IMG/VR virus record: IMGVR_UViG_2548876940_000003
Coordinates: 1-11,633 of that record
Reading direction: 5' to 3' (one strand)
Source: a virus
Taxonomy: Duplodnaviria > Heunggongvirae > Uroviricota > Caudoviricetes
Length of the DNA stretch: 11,633 bases
Shown: in pieces, positions 1,360 to 11,633 of the stretch
Position numbering within the stretch: position 1 is the stretch's first letter
Layout: every line of letters starts with the position of its first letter
The notes under the pieces: model-generated
The model's database searches: none
What the model saw: the letters and a program-made list of their open reading frames with translations, nothing else
What the model was told of the DNA's origin: nothing
Position numbers and translations under genes: made by a program

Positions 1360-1751
1360 AACATACGGATATCCGTGCAGCCGTACTGGATGCACTGGAG
1401 AAACATGATACCGGGGCGACGCTTTTTGATGGTCGCCCCGCTGTTTTTGATGAGGCGGATTTTCCGGCAATTGCCGTTTATCTCACCGGCGCTGAATACT
1501 CGGGCGAAGAGCTGGACTGCGATACCTGGCAGGCGGAGCTGCATATTGAAGTTTTTCTGCCTGCTCAGGTGCCGGATTCAGAGCTGGACACGTGGATGGA
1601 GTCCCGGATTTACCCGGTGATGAGCGATATCCCGGCACTGTCAGATTTGATCGCCAGTATGGTGGCCAGCGGCTATGACTACCGGCGCGATGATGATGTG
1701 GGCCTGTGGAGTTCAGCCGATCTGACTTATGTCATTACCTATGAAATGTGA
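1356..1751 (+). CDS. U: Tail tube terminator protein gpU
   Basis: 131-aa ORF ([123 protein letters not shown]), essentially colinear with lambda gpU. Confidence 0.95.
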
Positions 1752-1758
1752 GGACGAT

Positions 1759-2499
1759 ATGCCTGTACCAAATCCAGCAATACCGGTGAAAGGTGCCGGA
1801 ACCACCCTGTGGGTTTATAACGGAAACGGCGACCCTTATGCGAACCCGCTTTCAGACGTTGACTGGTCGCGTCTGGCAAAAGTTAAAGACCTGACGCCCG
1901 GCGAACTGACCGCGGAGTCCTATGACGACAGCTATCTCGATGATGAAGATGCGGACTGGACCGCAACCGGTCAGGGGCAGAAATCCGCCGGAGATACCAG
2001 CTTCACGCTGGCGTGGATGCCCGGAGAGCAGGGGCAGCAGGCGCTGCTGGCGTGGTTTAATGAAGGTGATACCCGTGCCTATAAAATTCGCTTCCCGAAC
2101 GGCACGGTCGATGTGTTCCGTGGCTGGGTCAGCAGTATCGGTAAGGCGGTGACGGCGAAGGAAGTGATCACCCGCACGGTGAAGGTCACCAATGTGGGAC
2201 GCCCGTCGATGGCAGAAGATCGCAGTACGGTGACAGCGGCAACCGGTATGACCGTGACGCCTGCCAGTGCTTCCGTGGTGAAAGGGAAGAGCACCACGCT
2301 GACTGTGGCATTTCAGCCGGAAGGCGCAACCGACAAGAGCTTCCGTGCGGTGTCAGAGGATAAAACAAAAGCCACCGTGTCGGTCAGTGGTATGACCATC
2401 ACCGTGAACGGTGTTGCTGCAGGTAAGGTCAACATTCCGGTTGTATCCGGTAATGGTGAGTTTGCTGCGGTTGCAGAAATCAACGTCACCGACAGCTAA
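1759..2499 (+). CDS. V: Major tail tube protein gpV with C-terminal Ig-like (Big_2) domain
   Basis: The track ORF starts at 1729, but that overlaps U. The ATG at 1759 gives MPVPNP...[10 protein letters not shown]...[47 protein letters not shown]..., matching lambda gpV. The C-terminal ~90 aa are rich in T/V/S, as in the lambda Ig-like decoration domain. Confidence 0.93.
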
Positions 2500-2513
2500 T
2501 CGGAGAGTCAGCG

Positions 2514-2936
2514 ATGTTCCTGAAAACCGAATCATTTGAATATAACGGCGTGAGCGTCACGCTTTCTGAGCTGTCAGCCCTGCAGCGTATTGAGCATCTT
2601 GCCCTGCTGAAACGGCAGGCAGAACAGGCGGGAGCCGGCGACAACCTGCAGGTGAGCGTGGAGGATCTCGTCAGAACCGGCGCGTTTCTGGTGGCGATGT
2701 CCCTGTGGCATAACCATCCGCAGAAGACAAAGAGGCCGTCCATGGATGAAGCCGTTAAACAGATTGAGCAGGAAGTGCTTACCACCTGGCCCACAGAGGC
2801 AATTGCTCAGGCTGAAAATGTGGTAATGCGTCTGTCCGGTATGTCTGAGTTTGTTGTGAATAATGCTCCTGAGCAGACAGAAGACGCGGGGCCTGCAGAG
2901 CCTGTTTCTGCGGGAAAGTGTTCGACGGTGAGCTGA
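2514..2936 (+). CDS. G: Tail assembly chaperone gpG
   Basis: 140-aa ORF (MFLKTESFE.NGV.VTLSELSALQRIEHLAL.KRQAEQA...AFLVAMSLWHNHPQKT..PSM.EAVKQIEQEVLTTWPTEAI..AENVV.RLSGM.EFVVNNAPEQTEDAGPAEPVSAGKCSTVS) matches lambda gpG, including the slippery site near its 3' end. Confidence 0.93.
   Translation: MFLKTESFEYNGVSVTLSELSALQRIEHLALLKRQAEQAGAGDNLQVSVEDLVRTGAFLVAMSLWHNHPQKTKRPSMDEAVKQIEQEVLTTWPTEAIAQAENVVMRLSGMSEFVVNNAPEQTEDAGPAEPVSAGKCSTVS
2912..2918 (+). promoter_or_regulatory. Programmed -1 ribosomal frameshift slippery heptamer G GGA AAG (G to G-T fusion)
   Basis: GGGAAAG lies in the G reading frame as G_GGA_AAG, 6 codons before the G stop. The -1 frame continues open for 141 codons (ORF 2918..3343), as in the lambda G/GT system. 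Confidence 0.85.
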
Positions 2937-3343
2937 GTTTTGCCCTGAAACTGGCGCGTGAGATGGGGAGACCCGACTGGCGTGCCATGCTTGCCGGGAT
3001 GTCATCCACGGAGTATGCCGACTGGCACCGCTTTTACAGCACCCATTATTTTCATGATGTTCTGCTGGATATGCACTTTTCCGGGCTGACGTACACCGTG
3101 CTCAGCCTGTTTTTCAGCGATCCGGATATGCATCCGCTGGATTTCAGTCTGCTGAACCGGCGCGAGGCTGACGAAGAGCCTGAAGATGATGTGCTGATGC
3201 AGAAAGCGGCAGGGCTTGCCGGAGGTGTTCGTTTTGGTCCGGACGGGAATGAAGTTATCCCCGCTTCCCCGGACATGACGGAGGATGACGCAATGCTGAT
3301 GACAGTATCAGAAGGGATCGCAGGAGGAGTCCGGTATGGCTGA
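2918..3343 (+). CDS. T: T-frame portion of the tail assembly chaperone gpGT fusion, expressed by -1 frameshift from G
   Basis: The -1 frame ORF begins at the slippery site and ends at a TGA overlapping the H start (3336). Acidic C-terminus as in lambda gpT. No independent RBS is expected. Confidence 0.85.
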   Translation: MFDGELSFALKLAREMGRPDWRAMLAGMSSTEYADWHRFYSTHYFHDVLLDMHFSGLTYTVLSLFFSDPDMHPLDFSLLNRREADEEPEDDVLMQKAAGLAGGVRFGPDGNEVIPASPDMTEDDAMLMTVSEGIAGGVRYG

Positions 3344-3878
3344 ACCGGTAGGCGATCTGGTCGTTGATTTAAGTCTGGATGCAGCCAGATTTGACGAGCA
3401 GATGGCCAGAGTCAGGCGTCATTTTTCCGGTACGGAAAGTGATGCGAAAAAAACAGCGGCAGTTGTTGAGCAGTCGATGAGCCGACAGGCGCTGGCTGCA
3501 CAGAAAGCGGGTATCTCTGTAGGGCAGTATAAAGCTGCCATGCGTATGCTGCCTGCGCAGTTCACCGACGTGGCCACGCAGCTTGCAGGGGGGCAGAACC
3601 CGTTTCTCATCCTGCTGCAACAGGGCGGTCAGGTAAAAGATTCCTTCGGTGGGTTGATCCCCATGTTCGGGGGGCTTGCCGGTGCAGTCACCCTGCCGAT
3701 GGTGGGGCTCACTTCGCTGGCAGTTGCCACCGGAGCGCTGGCGTATGCCTGGTATCAGGGGGACTCAACCCTGTCCAGTTTCAATAAAACGCTGGTCCTT
3801 TCCGGTAATCAGGCAGGACTAACGGCAGATCGTATGCTGGTCCTGTCCTGTCCAGAGCAGGGCAGGCGGCAGGGCTGA
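3336..3878 (+). CDS. H: Tail tape measure protein gpH, N-terminal fragment (reading frame broken at ~3849-3853)
   Basis: Strong RBS (aggagga) and ATG at 3336. MAEPVGDLVVDLSLDAARFDEQMARVRRHFSGTESDAKK... matches the lambda gpH N-terminus. The frame ends after LVLS with an aberrant CPEQGRRQG* tail, while the H sequence continues in another frame. Confidence 0.85.
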   Translation: MAEPVGDLVVDLSLDAARFDEQMARVRRHFSGTESDAKKTAAVVEQSMSRQALAAQKAGISVGQYKAAMRMLPAQFTDVATQLAGGQNPFLILLQQGGQVKDSFGGLIPMFGGLAGAVTLPMVGLTSLAVATGALAYAWYQGDSTLSSFNKTLVLSGNQAGLTADRMLVLSCPEQGRRQG

Positions 3879-5920
3879 CGTTTAACCAGACCAGCGAGTC
3901 ACTGACGGCGCTGGTGAATGCCGGTGTGCGTGGTGGTGAGCAGTTTGAGGCGATCAGCCAGAGTGTGGCGCGTTTCTCCTCTGCATCGGGCGTGGAGGTG
4001 GACAAGGTCGCTGAAGCCTTCGGGAAGCTGACCACAGACCCGACGTCGGGACTGACAGCGATGGCACGTCAGTTCCATAACGTGACGGCGGAGCAGATTG
4101 CGTATGTTGCTCAGTTGCAGCGTTCCGGAGATGAAGCCGGGGCATTGCAGGCGGCGAACGAGGCCGCAACGAAAGGGTTTGATGACCAGACCCGCCGCCT
4201 GAAAGAGAACATGGGCACGCTGGAGACCTGGGCAGACAGGACAGCACAGGCATTCAAATCCATGTGGGATGCGGTGCTGGATATTGGCCGCCCGGACTCC
4301 TCTGCAGATATGCTCGCCAAAGCTGAAAAGGCTTTTGATGAAGCGGATAAAAAATGGCAGTGGTATCAGAGCCGAAGCCACCGGCGCGGTAAAACGTCAG
4401 CATTTCTTGCCAATCTCCGGGGGGCATGGGAGAAGAGAGAGAATGCGCGACTTGGGCTTTCAGCCGCCACGTTGCAGGCCGATCTTGAAAAGGCCAGTGA
4501 GATGGCAGCAAAAGATCGGGCTGAGTCTGAGGCATCACGGCTGAAATATACCGAAGAGGCGCAGAAGGCTTACGAACGCCTGCAGACGCCGCTGGAGAAA
4601 TATACCGCCCGTCAGGAAGAACTGAATAAGGCACTGAAAGACGGGAAAATTCTGCAGGCAGATTACAACACGCTGATGGCGGCGGCGAAAAAGGATTATG
4701 AAGCGACGCTGAAAAAGCCGAAGCAGTCCGGCGTGAAGGTGTCTGCGGGTGATCGTCAGGAAGACAGTGCTCATGCTGCCCTGTTGACGCTTCAGGCAGA
4801 ACTCCGGACGCTGGAGAAGCATGCCGGAGCGAATGAGAAAATCAGCCAGCAGCGCCGGGATTTGTGGAAGGCGGAGAATCAGTTCGCGGTACTGGAGGAG
4901 GCGGCGCAACGTCGCCAGCTGTCTGCACAGGAGAAATCCCTGCTGGCGCATAAAGACGAGACGCTGGAGTACAAGCGCCAGCTGGCTGCACTTGGCGACA
5001 AGGTTACGTATCAGGAGCACCTGAACGCGCTGGCGCAGCAGGCGGATAAATTCGCACAGCAGCAACGGGCAAAACGGGCCGCCATTGATGCGAAAAGCCG
5101 GGGGCTGACTGACCGGCAGGCAGAACGGGAAGGCACGGAACAGCGCCTGAAGGAACAGTATGGCGATAATCCGCTGGCGCTGAATAACGTCATGTCAGAG
5201 CAGAAAAAGACCTGGGCGGCTGAAGACCAGCTTCGCGGGAGCTGGATGGCAGGCCTGAAGTCCGGCTGGAGTGAGTGGGAAGAGAGCGCCACGGACAGTA
5301 TGTCGCAGGTAAAAAGTGCAGCCACGCAGACCTTTGATGGAATTGCACAGAATATGGCGGCGATGCTGACCGGCAGTGAGCAGAACTGGCGCAGCTTCAC
5401 CCGTTCCGTGCTGTCTATGATGACAGAAATTCTGCTTAAGCAGGCAATGGTGGGGATTGTCGGGAGTATCGGCAGCGCCATTGGCGGGGCTGCCGGTGGT
5501 GGCGCATCCGCGTCAGGCGGTAGAGCCATTCAGGCCGCTGCGGCGAAATTCCATTTTGCAACCGGAGGATTTACGGGAACCGGCGGCAAATATGAGCCAG
5601 CGGGGATTGTTCACCGTGGTGAGTTTGTCTTCACGAAGGAGGCAACCAGCCGGATTGGCGTGGGGAATCTTTACCGGCTGATGCGCGGCTATGCCACCGG
5701 CGGTTATGTCGGTACACCGGGCAGCATGGCAGACAGCCGATCGCAGGCGTCCGGGACGTTTGAGCAGAATAACCATGTGGTGATTAACAACGACGGCACG
5801 AACGGGCAGATTGGACCACAGGCGCTGAAGGCTGTGTATGACATGGCCCGCAAGGGTGCCCGTGATGAAATTCAGGCACAGATGCGCGATGGTGGTCTGT
5901 TCTCCGGAGGTGGACGATGA
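3842..5920 (+). CDS. H: Tail tape measure protein gpH, C-terminal ~690 codons in the shifted frame (likely pseudogene or sequencing error)
   Basis: The frame 3842.. reads PVLSRAGQAAGLTFNQTSESL...ISQSVARFSSASGVEVDKVAEAFGKLTTDPTSGL..., colinear with lambda gpH through to the C-terminal ...MRDGGLFSGGGR. The track ORF 3914..5920 starts at an internal GTG. The stop overlaps the M start (ATGA). Confidence 0.85.
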   Translation, partial: PVLSRAGQAAGLTFNQTSESLTALVNAGVRGGEQFEAISQSVARFSSASGVEVDKVAEAFGKLTTDPTSGLTAMARQFHNVTAEQIAYVAQLQRSGDEAGALQAANEAATKGFDDQTRRLKENMGTLETWADRTAQAFKSMWDAVLDIGRPDSSADMLAKAEKAFDEADKKWQWYQSRSHRRGKTSAFLANLRGAWEKRENARLGLSAATLQADLEKASEMAAKDRAESEASRLKYTEEAQKAYERLQTPLEKYTARQEELNKALKDGKILQADYNTLMAAAKKDYEATLKKPKQSGVKVSAGDRQEDSAHAALLTLQAELRTLEKHAGANEKISQQRRDLWKAENQFAVLEEAAQRRQLSAQEKSLLAHKDETLEYKRQLAALGDKVTYQEHLNALAQQADKFAQQQRAKRAAIDAKSRGLTDRQAEREGTEQRLKEQYGDNPLALNNVMSEQKKTWAAEDQLRGSWMAGLKSGWSEWEESATDSMSQVKSAATQTFDGIAQNMAAMLTGSEQNWRSFTRSVLSMMTEILLKQAMVGIVGSIGSAIGGAAGGGASASGGRAIQAAAAKFHFATGGFTGTGGKYEPAGIVHRGEFVFTKEATSRIGVGNLYRLMRGYATGGYVGTPGSMADSRSQASGTFEQNNHVVINNDGTNGQIGPQALKAVYDMARKGARDEIQAQMRDGGLFSGGGR

Positions 5921-6246
5921 AAACCTTCCGCTGGAAAGTGAAACCCGGGATGGATGTGACATCGGCTCCTTCCGTCAGGGAGGTGCGCTTTGGTGATGGC
6001 TATTCCCAGCGTGCGCCTGCCGGGCTGAACGCTGACCTGAAAACGTACAGCGTGACGCTGTCTGTCTCCCGTGAGGAGGCCACGGCGCTGGAGTCGTTTC
6101 TGGCTGAGCACGGGGGCTGGAAGGCCTTTCTGTGGACGCCGCCTTATGGTTACAGGCAGATAAAGGTGACCTGCGCAAAATGGTCGTCGCAGGTCAGTAT
6201 GCTGCGTGTTGAGTTCAGCGCAGAGTTTAAACAGGTGGTGAACTGA
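5917..6246 (+). CDS. M: Tail tip protein gpM
   Basis: 109-aa ORF (MKTFRWKVKPGMDV...VRFGDGYSQRAPAGLNA.LKTYSVTLSV.REEAT.LESFL.EHGGWK.FLWTPPY..RQIKVTCAKWSS.VSMLRVEFSAEF.QVVN), colinear with lambda gpM. Confidence 0.95.
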   Translation: MKTFRWKVKPGMDVTSAPSVREVRFGDGYSQRAPAGLNADLKTYSVTLSVSREEATALESFLAEHGGWKAFLWTPPYGYRQIKVTCAKWSSQVSMLRVEFSAEFKQVVN

Positions 6247-6944
6247 TGCAGGATATCCGGCAGGAAACACTGAATGAATGCACCCGTGCGGAGCAGTCGG
6301 CCAGCGTGGTGCTCTGGGAAATCGATCTGACAGAGGTCGGTGGAGAACGTTATTTTTTCTGTAATGAGCAGAACGAAAAAGGTGAGCCGGTCACCTGGCA
6401 GGGGAGGCAGTATCAGGCGTATCCCATTCAGGGGAGCGGTTTTGAACTGAATGGCAAAGGCACCAGTACGCGGCCCACGCTGGCAGTCTCTAACCTGTAC
6501 GGCATGGTCACCGGTATGGTGGAAGATATGCAGAGTCTGGTCGGCGGAACGGTGGTCAGGCGTAAGGTTTACGCCCGTTTTCTGGATGCGGTGAACTTCG
6601 TCAACGGAAACAGTGACGCCGATCCGGAGCAGGAGGTGATCAGCCGCTGGCGCATCGAGCAGTGCAGTGAACTGAGCGCGGTGAGTGCCTCCTTTGTACT
6701 GGCCACGCCGACGGAAACGGATGGCGCTGTTTTTCCGGGGCGTATCATGCTGGCCAACACCTGCACCTGGACCTATCGCGGTGATGAGTGCGGTTATAAC
6801 GGTCCGGCTGTCGCGGATGAATATGACCAGCCGACGTCCGATATCACGAAGGATAAATGCAGCAAATGCCTGAGTGGCTGTAAGTTTCGCAATAACGTCG
6901 GCAACTTTGGCGGCTTCCTTTCCATTAACAAACTTTCGCAGTAA
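6246..6944 (+). CDS. L: Tail tip protein gpL (C-terminal cysteine cluster, iron-sulfur binding in lambda)
   Basis: 232-aa ORF (MQDIRQETLNECTRAEQSASVVLWEIDLTEVGGERYFFCNEQNEKGEPVTWQGRQYQ.YPIQGSGFELNGKGTSTRPTL.VSNLYGMVTGM.EDMQSLVGGTVVRRKVYARFLDAVNFVNGNS.ADPEQEV...CTWTYRGDECGY.GP...DKCSKCLSGCKFRNNVGNFGGFLSINKLSQ) matches lambda gpL. Confidence 0.95.
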   Translation: MQDIRQETLNECTRAEQSASVVLWEIDLTEVGGERYFFCNEQNEKGEPVTWQGRQYQAYPIQGSGFELNGKGTSTRPTLAVSNLYGMVTGMVEDMQSLVGGTVVRRKVYARFLDAVNFVNGNSDADPEQEVISRWRIEQCSELSAVSASFVLATPTETDGAVFPGRIMLANTCTWTYRGDECGYNGPAVADEYDQPTSDITKDKCSKCLSGCKFRNNVGNFGGFLSINKLSQ

Positions 6945-6949
6945 ATCCC

Positions 6950-7693
6950 ATGACACAGACAGAATCAGCGATTCTGGCGCACGCCCGGCGATGTGCGCCA
7001 GCGGAGTCGTGCGGCTTCGTGGTAAGCACGCCGGAGGGGGAAAGATATTTCCCCTGCGTGAATATCTCCGGTGAGCCGGAGGCGTATTTCCGTATGTCGC
7101 CGGAAGACTGGCTGCAGGCAGAAATGCAGGGTGAGATTGTGGCGCTGGTCCACAGCCACCCCGGTGGTCTACCCTGGCTGAGTGAGGCCGACCGGCGGCT
7201 GCAGGTGCAGAGTGATTTGCCGTGGTGGCTGGTCTGCCGGGGGACGATTCATAAGTTCCGCTGTGTGCCGCATCTCACCGGGCGGCGCTTTGAGCACGGT
7301 GTGACGGACTGTTACACACTGTTCCGGGATGCTTATCATCTGGCGGGGATTGAGATGCCGGACTTTCATCGTGAGGATGACTGGTGGCGTAACGGCCAGA
7401 ATCTCTATCTGGATAATCTGGAGGCGACGGGGCTGTATCAGGTGCCGTTGTCAGCGGCACAGCCGGGCGATGTGCTGCTGTGCTGTTTTGGTTCATCGGT
7501 GCCGAATCACGCCGCAATTTACTGCGGCGACGGCGAGCTGCTGCACCATATTCCTGAACAACTGAGCAAACGAGAGAGGTACACCGACAAATGGCAGCGA
7601 CGCACACACTCCCTCTGGCGTCACCGGGCATGGCGCGCATCTGCCTTTACGGGGATTTACAACGATTTGGTCGCCGCATCGACCTTCGTGTGA
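6950..7693 (+). CDS. K: Tail tip assembly protein gpK (MPN/JAMM domain plus NlpC/P60-like domain)
   Basis: 247-aa ORF. It contains a complete JAMM motif (E in AESCGF, then HSHPGGLPWLSEAD = HxHx7Sx2D) and a C-terminal Cys/His region (TDCYTLF...NHAAIY..LLHH). The lambda annotation I recall uses the internal Met at 7094 (MSPEDW..., 199 aa); the 6950 start includes the whole MPN domain. The 3' end overlaps I by 103 nt. Confidence 0.85.
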   Translation: MTQTESAILAHARRCAPAESCGFVVSTPEGERYFPCVNISGEPEAYFRMSPEDWLQAEMQGEIVALVHSHPGGLPWLSEADRRLQVQSDLPWWLVCRGTIHKFRCVPHLTGRRFEHGVTDCYTLFRDAYHLAGIEMPDFHREDDWWRNGQNLYLDNLEATGLYQVPLSAAQPGDVLLCCFGSSVPNHAAIYCGDGELLHHIPEQLSKRERYTDKWQRRTHSLWRHRAWRASAFTGIYNDLVAASTFV

Positions 7694-8262
7694 AAACGGG
7701 GGCTGAAGCCATCCGGGCACTGGCCACACAGCTCCCGGCGTTTCGTCAGAAACTGAGCGACGGCTGGTATCAGGTACGGATTGCCGGGCGGGACGTCAGC
7801 ACGTCCGGGTTAACGGCTCAGTTACATGAGACTCTGCCTGATGGCGCTGTGATTCATATTGTTCCCAGAGTCGCCGGGGCCAAGTCAGGTGGCGTATTCC
7901 AGATTGTCCTGGGGGCTGCCGCCATTGCCGGATCATTCTTTACCGCCGGAGCCACCCTTGCAGCATGGGGGGCAGCCATTGGGGCCGGTGGTATGACCGG
8001 CATCCTGTTTTCTCTCGGTGCCAGTATGGTGCTCGGTGGTGTGGCGCAGATGCTGGCACCGAAAGCCAGAACTCCCCGTACACAGACAACGGATAACGGT
8101 AAGCAGAACACCTATTTCTCCTCACTGGATAACATGGTTGCCCAGGGCAATGTTCTGCCCGTTCTGTACGGTGAAATGCGCGTGGGGTCTCGCGTGGTTT
8201 CTCAGGAGATCAGCACGGCAGACGAAGGGGACGGTGGTCAGGTTGTGGTGATTGGTCGCTGA
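7591..8262 (+). CDS. I: Tail tip assembly protein gpI
   Basis: 223-aa ORF (MAATHTLPLASPGMARICLYGDLQRFGRRIDLRVKTGAEAIRALATQLPAFRQKLSDGWYQVRIAGRDVS...GEMRVGSRVVSQEISTADEGDGGQVVVIGR), colinear with lambda gpI. It starts inside the 3' end of K in another frame, as in lambda. Confidence 0.93.
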   Translation: MAATHTLPLASPGMARICLYGDLQRFGRRIDLRVKTGAEAIRALATQLPAFRQKLSDGWYQVRIAGRDVSTSGLTAQLHETLPDGAVIHIVPRVAGAKSGGVFQIVLGAAAIAGSFFTAGATLAAWGAAIGAGGMTGILFSLGASMVLGGVAQMLAPKARTPRTQTTDNGKQNTYFSSLDNMVAQGNVLPVLYGEMRVGSRVVSQEISTADEGDGGQVVVIGR

Positions 8263-8280
8263 TGCAAAATGTTTTATGTG

Positions 8281-8301
8281 AAACCGCCTGCGGGCGGTTT
8301 T
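8281..8301 (+). terminator. Intergenic I-J stem-loop with trailing T-run (putative attenuator or RNA-stability hairpin)
   Basis: AAACCGCC-tgcg-GGCGGTTT is a perfect 8-bp inverted repeat with a 4-nt loop, followed by TTTTgtcgTTTaT, in the 60-nt gap between the I stop (8262) and the J RBS/ATG (8323). Confidence 0.4.
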
Positions 8302-8322
8302 GTCGTTTATGGAGCGTGAGGA

Positions 8323-10263
8323 ATGGGTAAAGGCAGCAGTAAGGGGCATACCCCGCGCGAAGCGAAAGATAACCTGAAATCCACGCAGCTGCTGAGTGTG
8401 ATTGATGCCATCAGCGAAGGGCCGATTGAAGGTCCGGTGGATGGATTAAAAAGCGTGCTGCTGAACAGTACGCCGGTGCTGGACAGTGAGGGGAATACCA
8501 ACATCTCCGGCGTCACGGTGGTGTTCCGGGCAGGTGAGCAGGAGCAGACACCGCCGGAAGGTTTTGAATCCTCCGGCTCCGAGACGGTGCTGGGTACGGA
8601 AGTGAAATATGACACGCCGATCACCCGCACCATCACGTCGGCAAACATCGACCGCCTGCGCTTTACCTTCGGTGTGCAGGCACTGGTGGAAACCACCTCA
8701 AAGGGGGACCGGAATCCGTCGGAAGTCCGCCTGCTGGTTCAGATACAGCGTAACGGTGGCTGGGTGACGGAAAAAGACATCACCATTAAGGGCAAAACCA
8801 CCTCGCAGTATCTGGCCTCGGTGGTGGTGGATAACCTGCCGCCGCGCCCGTTTAATATCCGGATGCGCAGGATGATGCCGGACAGCACCACAGACCAGCT
8901 GCAGAACAAAACGCTCTGGTCGTCATACACCGAAATCATCGATGTGAAACAGTGCTACCCGAACACGGCACTGGTCGGCGTACAGGTGGACTCGGAGCAG
9001 TTCGGCAGCCAGCAGGTGAGTCGTAATTATCATCTTCGCGGGCGCATTCTGCAGGTGCCGTCGAACTATAACCCGCAGACGCGACAATACAGCGGTATCT
9101 GGGACGGAACGTTAAAACCAGCATACAGCAACAACATGGCCTGGTGTCTGTGGGATATGCTGACCCACCCGCGCTACGGCATGGGGAAACGTCTTGGTGC
9201 GGCGGATGTGGACAAATGGGCGCTGTATGTCATCGGCCAGTACTGCGACCAGTCAGTGCCGGACGGCTTTGGCGGCACGGAGCTGCGCATCACCTGTAAT
9301 GCGTACCTGACCACACAGCGCAAGGCGTGGGATGTGCTCAGTGATTTCTGCTCGGCGATGCGCTGTATGCCGGTATGGAACGGGCAGACGCTGACGTTCG
9401 TGCAGGACCGACCGTCGGATAAGGTGTGGACCTATAACCGCAGTAATGTGGTGATGCCGGATGATGGCGCGCCGTTCCGCTACAGCTTCAGCGCCCTGAA
9501 GGACCGCCATAATGCCGTTGAGGTGAACTGGATTGACCCGAACAACGGCTGGGAGACGGCGACAGAGCTTGTGGAGGATACGCAGGCCATTGCCCGTTAC
9601 GGTCGTAACGTCACGAAGATGGATGCTTTTGGCTGTACCAGCCGGGGGCAGGCACACCGCGCCGGGCTGTGGCTGATTAAAACAGAACTGCTGGAAACGC
9701 AGACCGTGGACTTCAGCGTGGGCGCAGAAGGGCTTCGCCATGTGCCGGGCGATGTCATTGAAATCTGCGATGATGACTATGCCGGTATCAGCACCGGCGG
9801 GCGCGTGCTGGCGGTGAACAGCCAGACCCGGACGCTGACGCTCGACCGTGAAATCACGCTGCCATCCTCCGGTACCACGCTGATAAGCCTGGTTGACGGA
9901 AGTGGCAATCCGGTCAGCGTGGAGGTTCAGTCCGTCACCGACGGCGTGAAGGTGAAAGTGAGCCGTGTTCCTGACGGCGTTGCTGAATACAGCGTATGGG
10001 GGCTGAAGCTGCCGACGCTGCGCCAGCGCCTGTTCCGCTGCGTGAGTATCCGTGAGAACGATGACGGCACGTATGCCATCACTGCCGTGCAGCATGTACC
10101 GGAAAAAGAAGCCATCGTGGATAACGGGGCGCACTTTGACGGCGACCAGAGCGGCACGGTGAATGGTGTCACGCCGCCAGCGGTACAGCACCTGACTGCC
10201 GAAGTCACCGCAGACAGCGGGGAATATCAGGTGCTGGCGCGCTGGGACACCCGAAGGTGGTGA
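8323..10263 (+). CDS. J: Tail tip / central fibre host-specificity protein gpJ, N-terminal ~640 codons (frame broken at ~10250)
   Basis: RBS tgagga and ATG at 8323. [54 protein letters not shown]... is colinear with lambda gpJ. The ORF ends prematurely with ...ARWDTRRW* where lambda reads ...[14 protein letters not shown].... Confidence 0.9.
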
Positions 10264-11633
10264 AGGGCGTTAGCTTCCTTCTTCGCCTGACCGTGGCAGC
10301 GGATGACGGCAGTGAGCGGCTGGTCAGCACGGCCCGGACGACGGAAACCACATACCGCTTCAGGCAACTGGCGCTGGGGCGTTACACGCTGACAGTCCGG
10401 GCGGTAAATGCGTGGGGACAGCAGGGCGATCCGGCGTCGGTATCGTTCCGGATTGCCGCACCGGCAGCGCCGTCGCGGATTGAGCTGACGCCGGGCTATT
10501 TTCAGATAACCGCCACGCCGCATCTTGCGGTTTATGATCCGACGGTACAGTTTGAATTCTGGTTCTCGGAAAAGCGGATTGCGGATATCAGGCAGGTTGA
10601 AACCACAGCCCGCTATCTTGGCACGGCGCTGTACTGGATAGCTGCCAGTATCAATATTAAGCCGGGCCATGATTATTATTTTTACATCTGCAGTGTGAAC
10701 ACCGTTGGCAAATCGGCATTTGTGGAGGCCGTCGGCCAGCCGAGTGATGATGCATCCGGCTATCTGGATTTTTTCAAAGGCGAGATAGGGAAAACCCATC
10801 TGGCTCAGGAGTTGTGGACGCAGATTGATAACGGTCAGCTTGCGCCTGACCTGGCTGAAATCAGGACGTCCATTACGGATGTCAGCAATGAAATCACGCA
10901 GACCGTCAATAAGAAACTGGAAGACCAGAGTGCGGCAATTCAGCAGATACAGAAGGTTCAGGTTGATACAAATAATAACCTGAACAGCATGTGGGCTGTG
11001 AAGCTGCAGCAGATGCAGGACGGACGCCTTTATATCGCGGGTATTGGTGCCGGTATTGAGAACACCTCTGACGGCATGCAGAGTCAGGTGCTGCTGGCGG
11101 CGGACAGGATTGCGATGGTTAATCCTGCGAATGGCAACACAAAACCGATGTTTGTTGGTCAGGGCGATCAGATATTCATGAACGACGTGTTCCTGAAACG
11201 CCTGACGGCCCCCACCATTACCAGCGGTGGAAATCCACCGGCATTTTCCCTGACACCGGACGGAAAGCTGACCGCTAAAAATGCGGATATCAGTGGCAGT
11301 GTGAATGCGAACGCCGGGACGCTCAACAATGTCACGATTAACGAGAACTGTCGGGTTCTGGGAAAACTGTCCGCGAACCAGATTGAAGGCGATCTCGTTA
11401 AAACAGTGGGCAAAGCTTTCCCCCGGGACTCCCGTGCACCGGAACGGTGGCCATCAGGGACCATTACCGTCAGGGTTTATGACGATCAGCCGTTTGACCG
11501 GCAGATTGTTATTCCGGCGGTGGCATTCAGCGGCGCTAAACATGAGAGAGAGCATACTGATATTTACTCCTCATGCCGTCTGATAGTGCGGAAAAACGGT
11601 GCTGAAATTTATAACCGTACCGCGCTGGATAAT
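10254..11633 (+). CDS. J: gpJ C-terminal continuation in the shifted frame (partial; open to the end of the window)
   Basis: By my manual translation, the frame starting at 10254 has no stop through 11633 and reads [104 protein letters not shown]...[47 protein letters not shown]..., matching the distal half of lambda gpJ. It is not in the ORF track, presumably because it lacks a start codon and a stop within the window. Confidence 0.85.

Follow-up and report, generated by a model that had tools for sequence, protein, structure and literature searches.

The distal half of J, the gene for the central tail fibre and tip attachment protein, appears here to be a natural recombinant from a lambda-like Escherichia coli prophage. 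Its receptor-binding domain (RBD) is likely of an OmpC type, and the tail genes around it are either decaying or carry draft-assembly indels; we give this reading as a whole a probability of roughly 0.85. Interchangeable modules would make up the allele: a hub and FNIII part as in lambda, an alpha-helical shaft of the long kind seen in phage 21, a conserved beta-prism block serving as the joint for recombination, and an Ig-like RBD of the '1A2' type. On this model, the trimeric RBD would dock on EDL933-like OmpC, and the remaining J would trigger tail opening as in lambda.

The window, by which we mean the whole stretch of DNA analysed (11,633 bp), is the entire draft contig AIAU01000221.1 (assembly GCA_000446445.2). 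Its tail module is lambda-like, with the gene order FII, Z, U, V, G, T, H, M, L, K, I, J. Called genes and Pfam families across the contig place J directly after I, in an order Z-U-V-G-T-H-M-L-K-I-J that is colinear with lambda.

J is a stepwise mosaic relative to lambda

As sequenced, J is read from two overlapping frames, and the parts discussed below are the following (window coordinates).

8323–10263 (+), first J ORF, 646 aa: hub and start of the first FNIII/Ig-like domain (ORF list, Pfam, 90–99% DNA identity to lambda)
10250–10251 (+), private 1-nt deletion in J (alignment with relatives)
10251–10745 (+), rest of FNIII-1 and FNIII-2, lambda-like, in the shifted frame (Pfam Ig_J and Ig_J_second; phmmer match to 8iyk_J residues 644–835)
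10746–10988 (+), alpha-helical shaft of the central fibre, long variant (identity to phage 21, PhiR55_1 and F2_407_2_2; limits from PMC11101478)
10989–11150 (+), proximal beta-prism 'central straight fibre' (moderate divergence from lambda; start of the Phage_Tail_Tip match)
11151–11297 (+), conserved straight-fibre block (47/49 residues identical to lambda)
11298–11633 (+), first two thirds of the RBD, 1A2 type (Ig_GpJ_C; 1A2 codon match; cut by the contig end)

J DNA was compared in 90-nt bins with lambda J (NC_001416), phage 21, PhiR55_1 and VT1-Sakai. Identity to lambda was 90–99% from 8323 to about 10740, fell to 23–70% over 10739–11188, where the window is longer by 36+27+21 = 84 nt, returned to 94% over 11189–11278, and dropped again to 46–64% from 11369 to the end. 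Protein identities were calculated with the frameshift repaired, using domain limits from lambda tail structures (PMC11101478). Lambda J residues 1–808 (hub and FNIII) are 98% identical in the window. The value is 28% (23/81) for the alpha-helical shaft (residues 809–861), in which the window has 28 additional amino acids, and 57% (31/54) for the proximal straight fibre (residues 862–915). It rises to 96% (47/49) in the conserved straight-fibre block (residues 916–964) and falls to 52% (58/111) in the RBD (residues 965–1075). The steps in identity coincide with the domain boundaries, far beyond chance.

A sequence-only reading of this DNA had proposed that the C-terminal region of J is mosaic relative to lambda, with near-identical N-terminal and middle parts and an equally lambda-like block between two divergent segments. 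Its quoted peptides are found in the translation of the frame containing base 10101, and the alignment bears out all three parts of the proposal. The divergent segments had been placed accurately, at 10780–11000 and from about 11340, although 11000–11150 is moderately divergent as well and had gone unflagged. As a check, it had proposed a pairwise alignment of J, with similarity followed along the gene. There is next to no chance that the apparent divergence stems from a wrong lambda J sequence in that first comparison and that the C-terminus is uniformly lambda-like: alignment to NC_001416 J refutes this, with the shaft and RBD values above set against 98% upstream.

The domain content is that of a lambda-type J. 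The first ORF matches the Pfam families FNIII-A_GpJ, Phage-tail_3 and Ig_J, and the second matches Ig_J, Ig_J_second, Phage_Tail_Tip and Ig_GpJ_C, all above Pfam cut-offs. The expected set of a hub, two FNIII/Ig-like domains, the tail tip fibre (PF09327) and the C-terminal Ig-like RBD (PF12421) is thus present. The Ig_GpJ_C match (73 bits) covers profile positions 1–76 of 135 and is partial because the contig ends. By phmmer, the J fragment aligns with the solved lambda J chains and with 'A8 gpJ 713' (9wca). Lambda J itself (NP_040600; PDB 8iyk, 8xcj; LamB-binding) occupies the same position after I, has the same Pfam set, and shares the architecture of hub, two FNIII domains, helical shaft, beta-prism and Ig-like RBD. 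The window J differs from it in the 28 extra shaft residues, in the 52% RBD identity, and in a predicted receptor that is OmpC instead of LamB.

The shaft is long but does not set the receptor

The shaft has 81 residues in the window and 53 in lambda. Its identity is 98% to phage 21 and 100% both to PhiR55_1 and to gpJ of E. coli F2_407_2_2. Judged by the lambda structure, from which the helical and heptad character is taken, the 28 additional residues would amount to four heptads and would lengthen the three-helix bundle that refolds upon tail opening. The similarity to phage 21 J (UMO75436, OL657228) extends on both sides, with a near-identical hub and 94% identity in the proximal fibre (10989–11150). 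The native receptor of phage 21 is LamB (PMC11336670). Given that the long shaft is common to this LamB-using phage, it does not set the receptor; the first divergent segment (10780–11000) is the alpha-helical shaft and no receptor determinant.

The conserved block at 11151–11297 can act as a homology arm for exchange of RBD modules. Within it, the DNA of 11189–11278 is closest to lambda (94%), followed by PhiR55_1 or VT1-Sakai (87%) and phage 21 (78%). This stretch is a small extra recombination patch, and the F2_407_2_2 copy has it in common with the window. On either side of 11189–11278, PhiR55_1, VT1-Sakai and phage 21 are otherwise the nearest relatives of the window.

The receptor-binding domain is nearly identical to the OmpC-type allele 1A2

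The RBD of the window lacks its last 56 codons and the stop codon, as measured against the relative that is 100% identical in the part present. That relative is F2_407_2_2 gpJ (WP_000515460.1); identity is 97% to PhiR55_1 and 64% to phage 21, and at 52% to lambda the window is not a member of lambda's LamB-type RBD allele (J residues 965–1132). The sequence-only reading had described J as truncated by the end of the window. J is indeed cut at 11633, but since the window is the whole contig, the cut is the contig end.

A functional comparison is available from Brödel et al. (Nature 2024; PMC11338833), whose supplement holds the DNA of the chimeras 1A2 and A8. In 1A2, the gpJ C-terminus of an E. 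coli strain from a private collection was fused to lambda gpJ at residue 964 (PMC11338833). Delivery by this chimera is efficient with EDL933 OmpC but fails with the K-12 variant (PMC11338833; also bioRxiv 10.1101/2025.02.28.640725), whereas A8 accepts both of these OmpC variants (PMC11338833). We located 1A2 and A8 in the supplement with a lambda-derived 12-mer and compared them with the window by a purpose-written, frameshift-tolerant protein–DNA alignment. The RBD part in the window matches 1A2 at 120 of 128 readable codons. For the last 168 amino acids of the 100%-identical relative, 150 of 160 readable codons match. Because the 1A2 sequence was taken from machine-read PDF text with dropped letters, the 94% identity obtained is a minimum. 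Most mismatches between the window and 1A2 fall at visibly corrupted supplement text, so the exact differences are uncertain; one that looks real is an R to K change (HEREH/HEKEH). Distal to lambda residue 964, the part of J inside the window is therefore nearly identical to 1A2.

The two J proteins also share the conserved joint upstream of the RBD. They differ before residue 964, where the 1A2 construct has the short lambda shaft and proximal fibre and the window has the long phage-21-type shaft, and their DNA differs at many synonymous sites. Unlike the RBD of the construct, that of the window breaks off with the contig and is preceded by a frameshift.

A8 (PDB 9wca/9wcb) belongs to the same RBD family, aligns over the whole RBD part and uses OmpC, but its identity is only about 70% for the part covered by the window, and 62% when the last 168 amino acids are compared, with loop indels unlike those of the window RBD. 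Its OmpC range is also wider, as 1A2 takes only the EDL933 type of the two variants. The phage 21 RBD is closer to A8 (81%) than to the window and, with a 4-aa deletion and a 5-aa insertion relative to both window and lambda, falls in another indel class. Given that phage 21 nevertheless uses LamB, receptor calls by homology are fragile in the J family. Our literature search found no publication describing 9wca/9wcb ('A8 gpJ 713'), and lambda-type RBDs lie outside the coverage of a 2026 receptor-prediction preprint.

From its allele, the window RBD would most likely dock onto OmpC, in EDL933-like variants, rather than onto LamB. This predicted assignment seems reasonably safe, and it is so only through the near-identity to 1A2. 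Of the two divergent segments, the altered receptor suggested by the sequence-only reading holds for the distal one, which is a different receptor-binding allele, and not for the shaft.

The mosaic J is the common form in E. coli prophages

The allele frequencies place the window J among ordinary E. coli sequences. Of 5426 complete E. coli genomes searched with DNA queries, 3378 contain the window RBD allele (11340–11633), for which 2373 records reach an identity of at least 95%, and 3566 contain the long shaft allele. Lambda's own RBD was found by megablast in just 98 of these genomes, including BL21(DE3), always at 99% identity or more, and so forms a separate allele class. The window J is the predominant form in E. 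coli prophages and the LamB-type RBD of lambda the rare one. Given these RBD counts, lambda is the outlier, not the window J, and divergence from lambda at the J C-terminus is the expected state rather than a signal. The finding has little importance beyond annotation: among lambdoid prophages of E. coli, this J allele is the usual and predominant one.

The same mosaic J is present and intact in closed E. coli genomes, at 99.9% DNA identity over 9900–11633. One such copy, the gpJ of NZ_CP074756, has 1159 aa, and downstream of it come lom and a side tail fibre gene; type III effector genes also occur behind intact copies, after these two. The gpJ proteins of F2_407_2_2, PhiR55_1, vB_EcoS-640R1, VT1-Sakai and PPompW show the same mosaic. 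F2_407_2_2 gpJ has 99.9% DNA identity over 9900–11633 and 100% protein identity for the shaft, fibre and RBD parts. Phage records PhiR55_1 and PhiR46_1, whose host field gives E. coli C or ECOR13 as a propagation host, carry it as well, and PhiR55_1 J is colinear with the window J at 96.6% over the whole gene.

The modularity of J is not new. Maddamsetti et al. (2018) reported that J residues 960–1132 form an independently recombining 'specificity region' whose phylogeny is unlike that of the rest of J (PMC6646904), and the RBD allele has already been described and exploited to retarget lambda to OmpC.

Alternative explanations for the mosaic

Might the mosaic have been stitched together during assembly from several co-resident lambdoid prophages? 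In favour, the draft contig is short, breaks off within J and carries two private indels, and an E. coli genome can hold up to 15 J-like places. We nonetheless consider such an origin very unlikely, because the same arrangement recurs in closed genomes and in the colinear J of PhiR55_1, so that both joints, near 10750 and near 11300, are natural ones. Farther upstream the contig may still be chimeric, given that the 5' part of the V-G-T-H region is 92% identical to lambda and 79% to F2_407_2_2.

A reading that accepts the natural mosaic but has the RBD bind LamB, as in lambda and phage 21, with the divergence neutral or reflecting LamB variation, is improbable, though less so than an assembly artefact. 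The RBD of LamB-using phage 21 is, after all, 64% identical to that of the window, and single mutations can change receptor use in the J family: one mutation adds OmpC use to phage 21 (PMC11336670). The near-identical 1A2 argues the other way. The test strain for the chimeras lacked lamB and ompC and received ompC variants on a plasmid, and 1A2 gave little delivery into LamB-bearing wild-type MG1655 but became efficient once EDL933 OmpC was supplied (PMC11338833). We therefore favour a natural recombinant with a likely OmpC-type RBD.

Frameshifts in J and H

An uninterrupted J frame of about 1130–1160 codons is absent from the window as sequenced. The first ORF ends at a premature TGA (10261–10263), and in GGGACAC-CCGAAG the window lacks one base, at 10250, where all six comparators (lambda, PhiR55_1, VT1-Sakai, phage 21 and two E. 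coli chromosomes) have A or G. Adding one base at this position gives a frame without stops. The break falls inside the first FNIII/Ig-like domain, and in the second frame Ig_J is matched again over profile positions 35–104. The divergent C-terminal region lies entirely in this other frame, downstream of the deletion. The gene called there (10260–11633) begins with a GTG at 10260 that overlaps the TGA (GTGA).

The deletion is private to this contig. A BLAST search with 161 nt around the junction, covering 5426 complete E. coli genomes and 9612 matching places, found it in no other copy and gave no 100% match; among the matches listed, the best were 99.4% identical and one base longer. The exact junction 36-mer was likewise absent from the genome contigs and viral contigs searched. 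Since the deletion occurs in no other copy, we rejected a programmed frameshift at 10250. As sequenced, the window J is thus a pseudogene or mis-assembled, not an intact member of the family.

The tape-measure gene H carries a second private indel, a 5-nt tandem duplication at about 3840–3844 (window 3836–3850), with three copies of GTCCT where lambda has two. It splits H into ORFs at 3336–3878 and 3914–5920, and deleting the five duplicated bases yields an 859-codon frame. BLAST found the duplication in none of the 5426 complete E. coli genomes.

With private indels in two essential tail genes, either the prophage is decaying or the draft assembly contains indel errors. That both are errors and the tail genes are intact in the real genome is quite possible, though short of probable. 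In favour of errors, the assembly is a draft and the prophage region rich in repeats, neither indel recurs in thousands of homologous copies, and all 13 tail genes are open but for these two indels. Against errors, neither indel lies in a long homopolymer: the J change is the loss of a single A/G from ACAC[A/G]CCG, and a GTCCT tandem duplication is a classic product of replication slippage. J pseudogenes are, moreover, common in prophages (VT1-Sakai, UTME-14). If real, the two frameshifts would leave the prophage unable to build a tail, and no altered specificity would be expressed from this contig if its sequence is correct. An apt annotation of the window J is frameshifted or partial, at a contig end.

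We see only a very slim chance that the deletion is real and that J is made as two polypeptides, through a predicted termination–reinitiation at the TGA/GTG at 10260. Such reinitiation could give a free C-terminal fragment comprising FNIII-2, shaft, fibre and RBD, which would resemble the soluble 'gpJ713' of structural work that binds receptor alone. If so, the free J fragment of a lysogen might occupy OmpC and modulate superinfection, and the fragment might be acquired through recombination by incoming phages.

The relatives' gpJ genes are intact at the site of the window frameshift, and VT1-Sakai and UTME-14 are disrupted differently. VT1-Sakai J is in two pieces and is annotated 'truncated by a mutation' (L003, 1542–5014), and UTME-14 gpJ, labelled 'frameshifted', has lost one C from a C-run (L006, 4521, equivalent to window 11420). 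J pseudogenes recur in E. coli prophages, with the disruptions at differing sites.

The rest of the tail module

Of 5426 complete E. coli genomes, 4676 have tail modules related to that of the window by megablast, but none matches it over the full length at more than about 94%. Positions 4529–11633 are 98.7% identical to the prophage of strain F2_407_2_2. Over 1671–4287 this value is 79%, compared with 92% to lambda. The 5' part of the V-G-T-H region (1671–4528) is thus nearer to lambda, despite the 99.9% identity of the F2_407_2_2 J, and 4288–4528, inside H, has no megablast alignment to lambda or to the F2_407_2_2 prophage. This patchwork reflects either mosaicism of the tail module on a larger scale or a chimeric contig.

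An Rfam scan of the window found no RNA families. The overlapping ORFs at 11168–11464 (−), 10227–10799 (−) and 11305–11583 (+) have no Pfam match and were taken as chance frames. In the G-T region, the gene T part has an in-frame 9-nt deletion relative to lambda at window position 3269. Gene K (6950–7693) encodes 247 aa with Prok-JAB and NlpC/P60 domains, and all K genes examined in phage 21, PhiR55_1 and E. coli prophages have this length. The lambda reference is short by one base at the equivalent of window 7084 (L001, 8128–8280), which puts its first ~45 K-like codons in another frame; lambda K is annotated as 199 aa, with its start downstream, and the shortened K is peculiar to the lambda reference.
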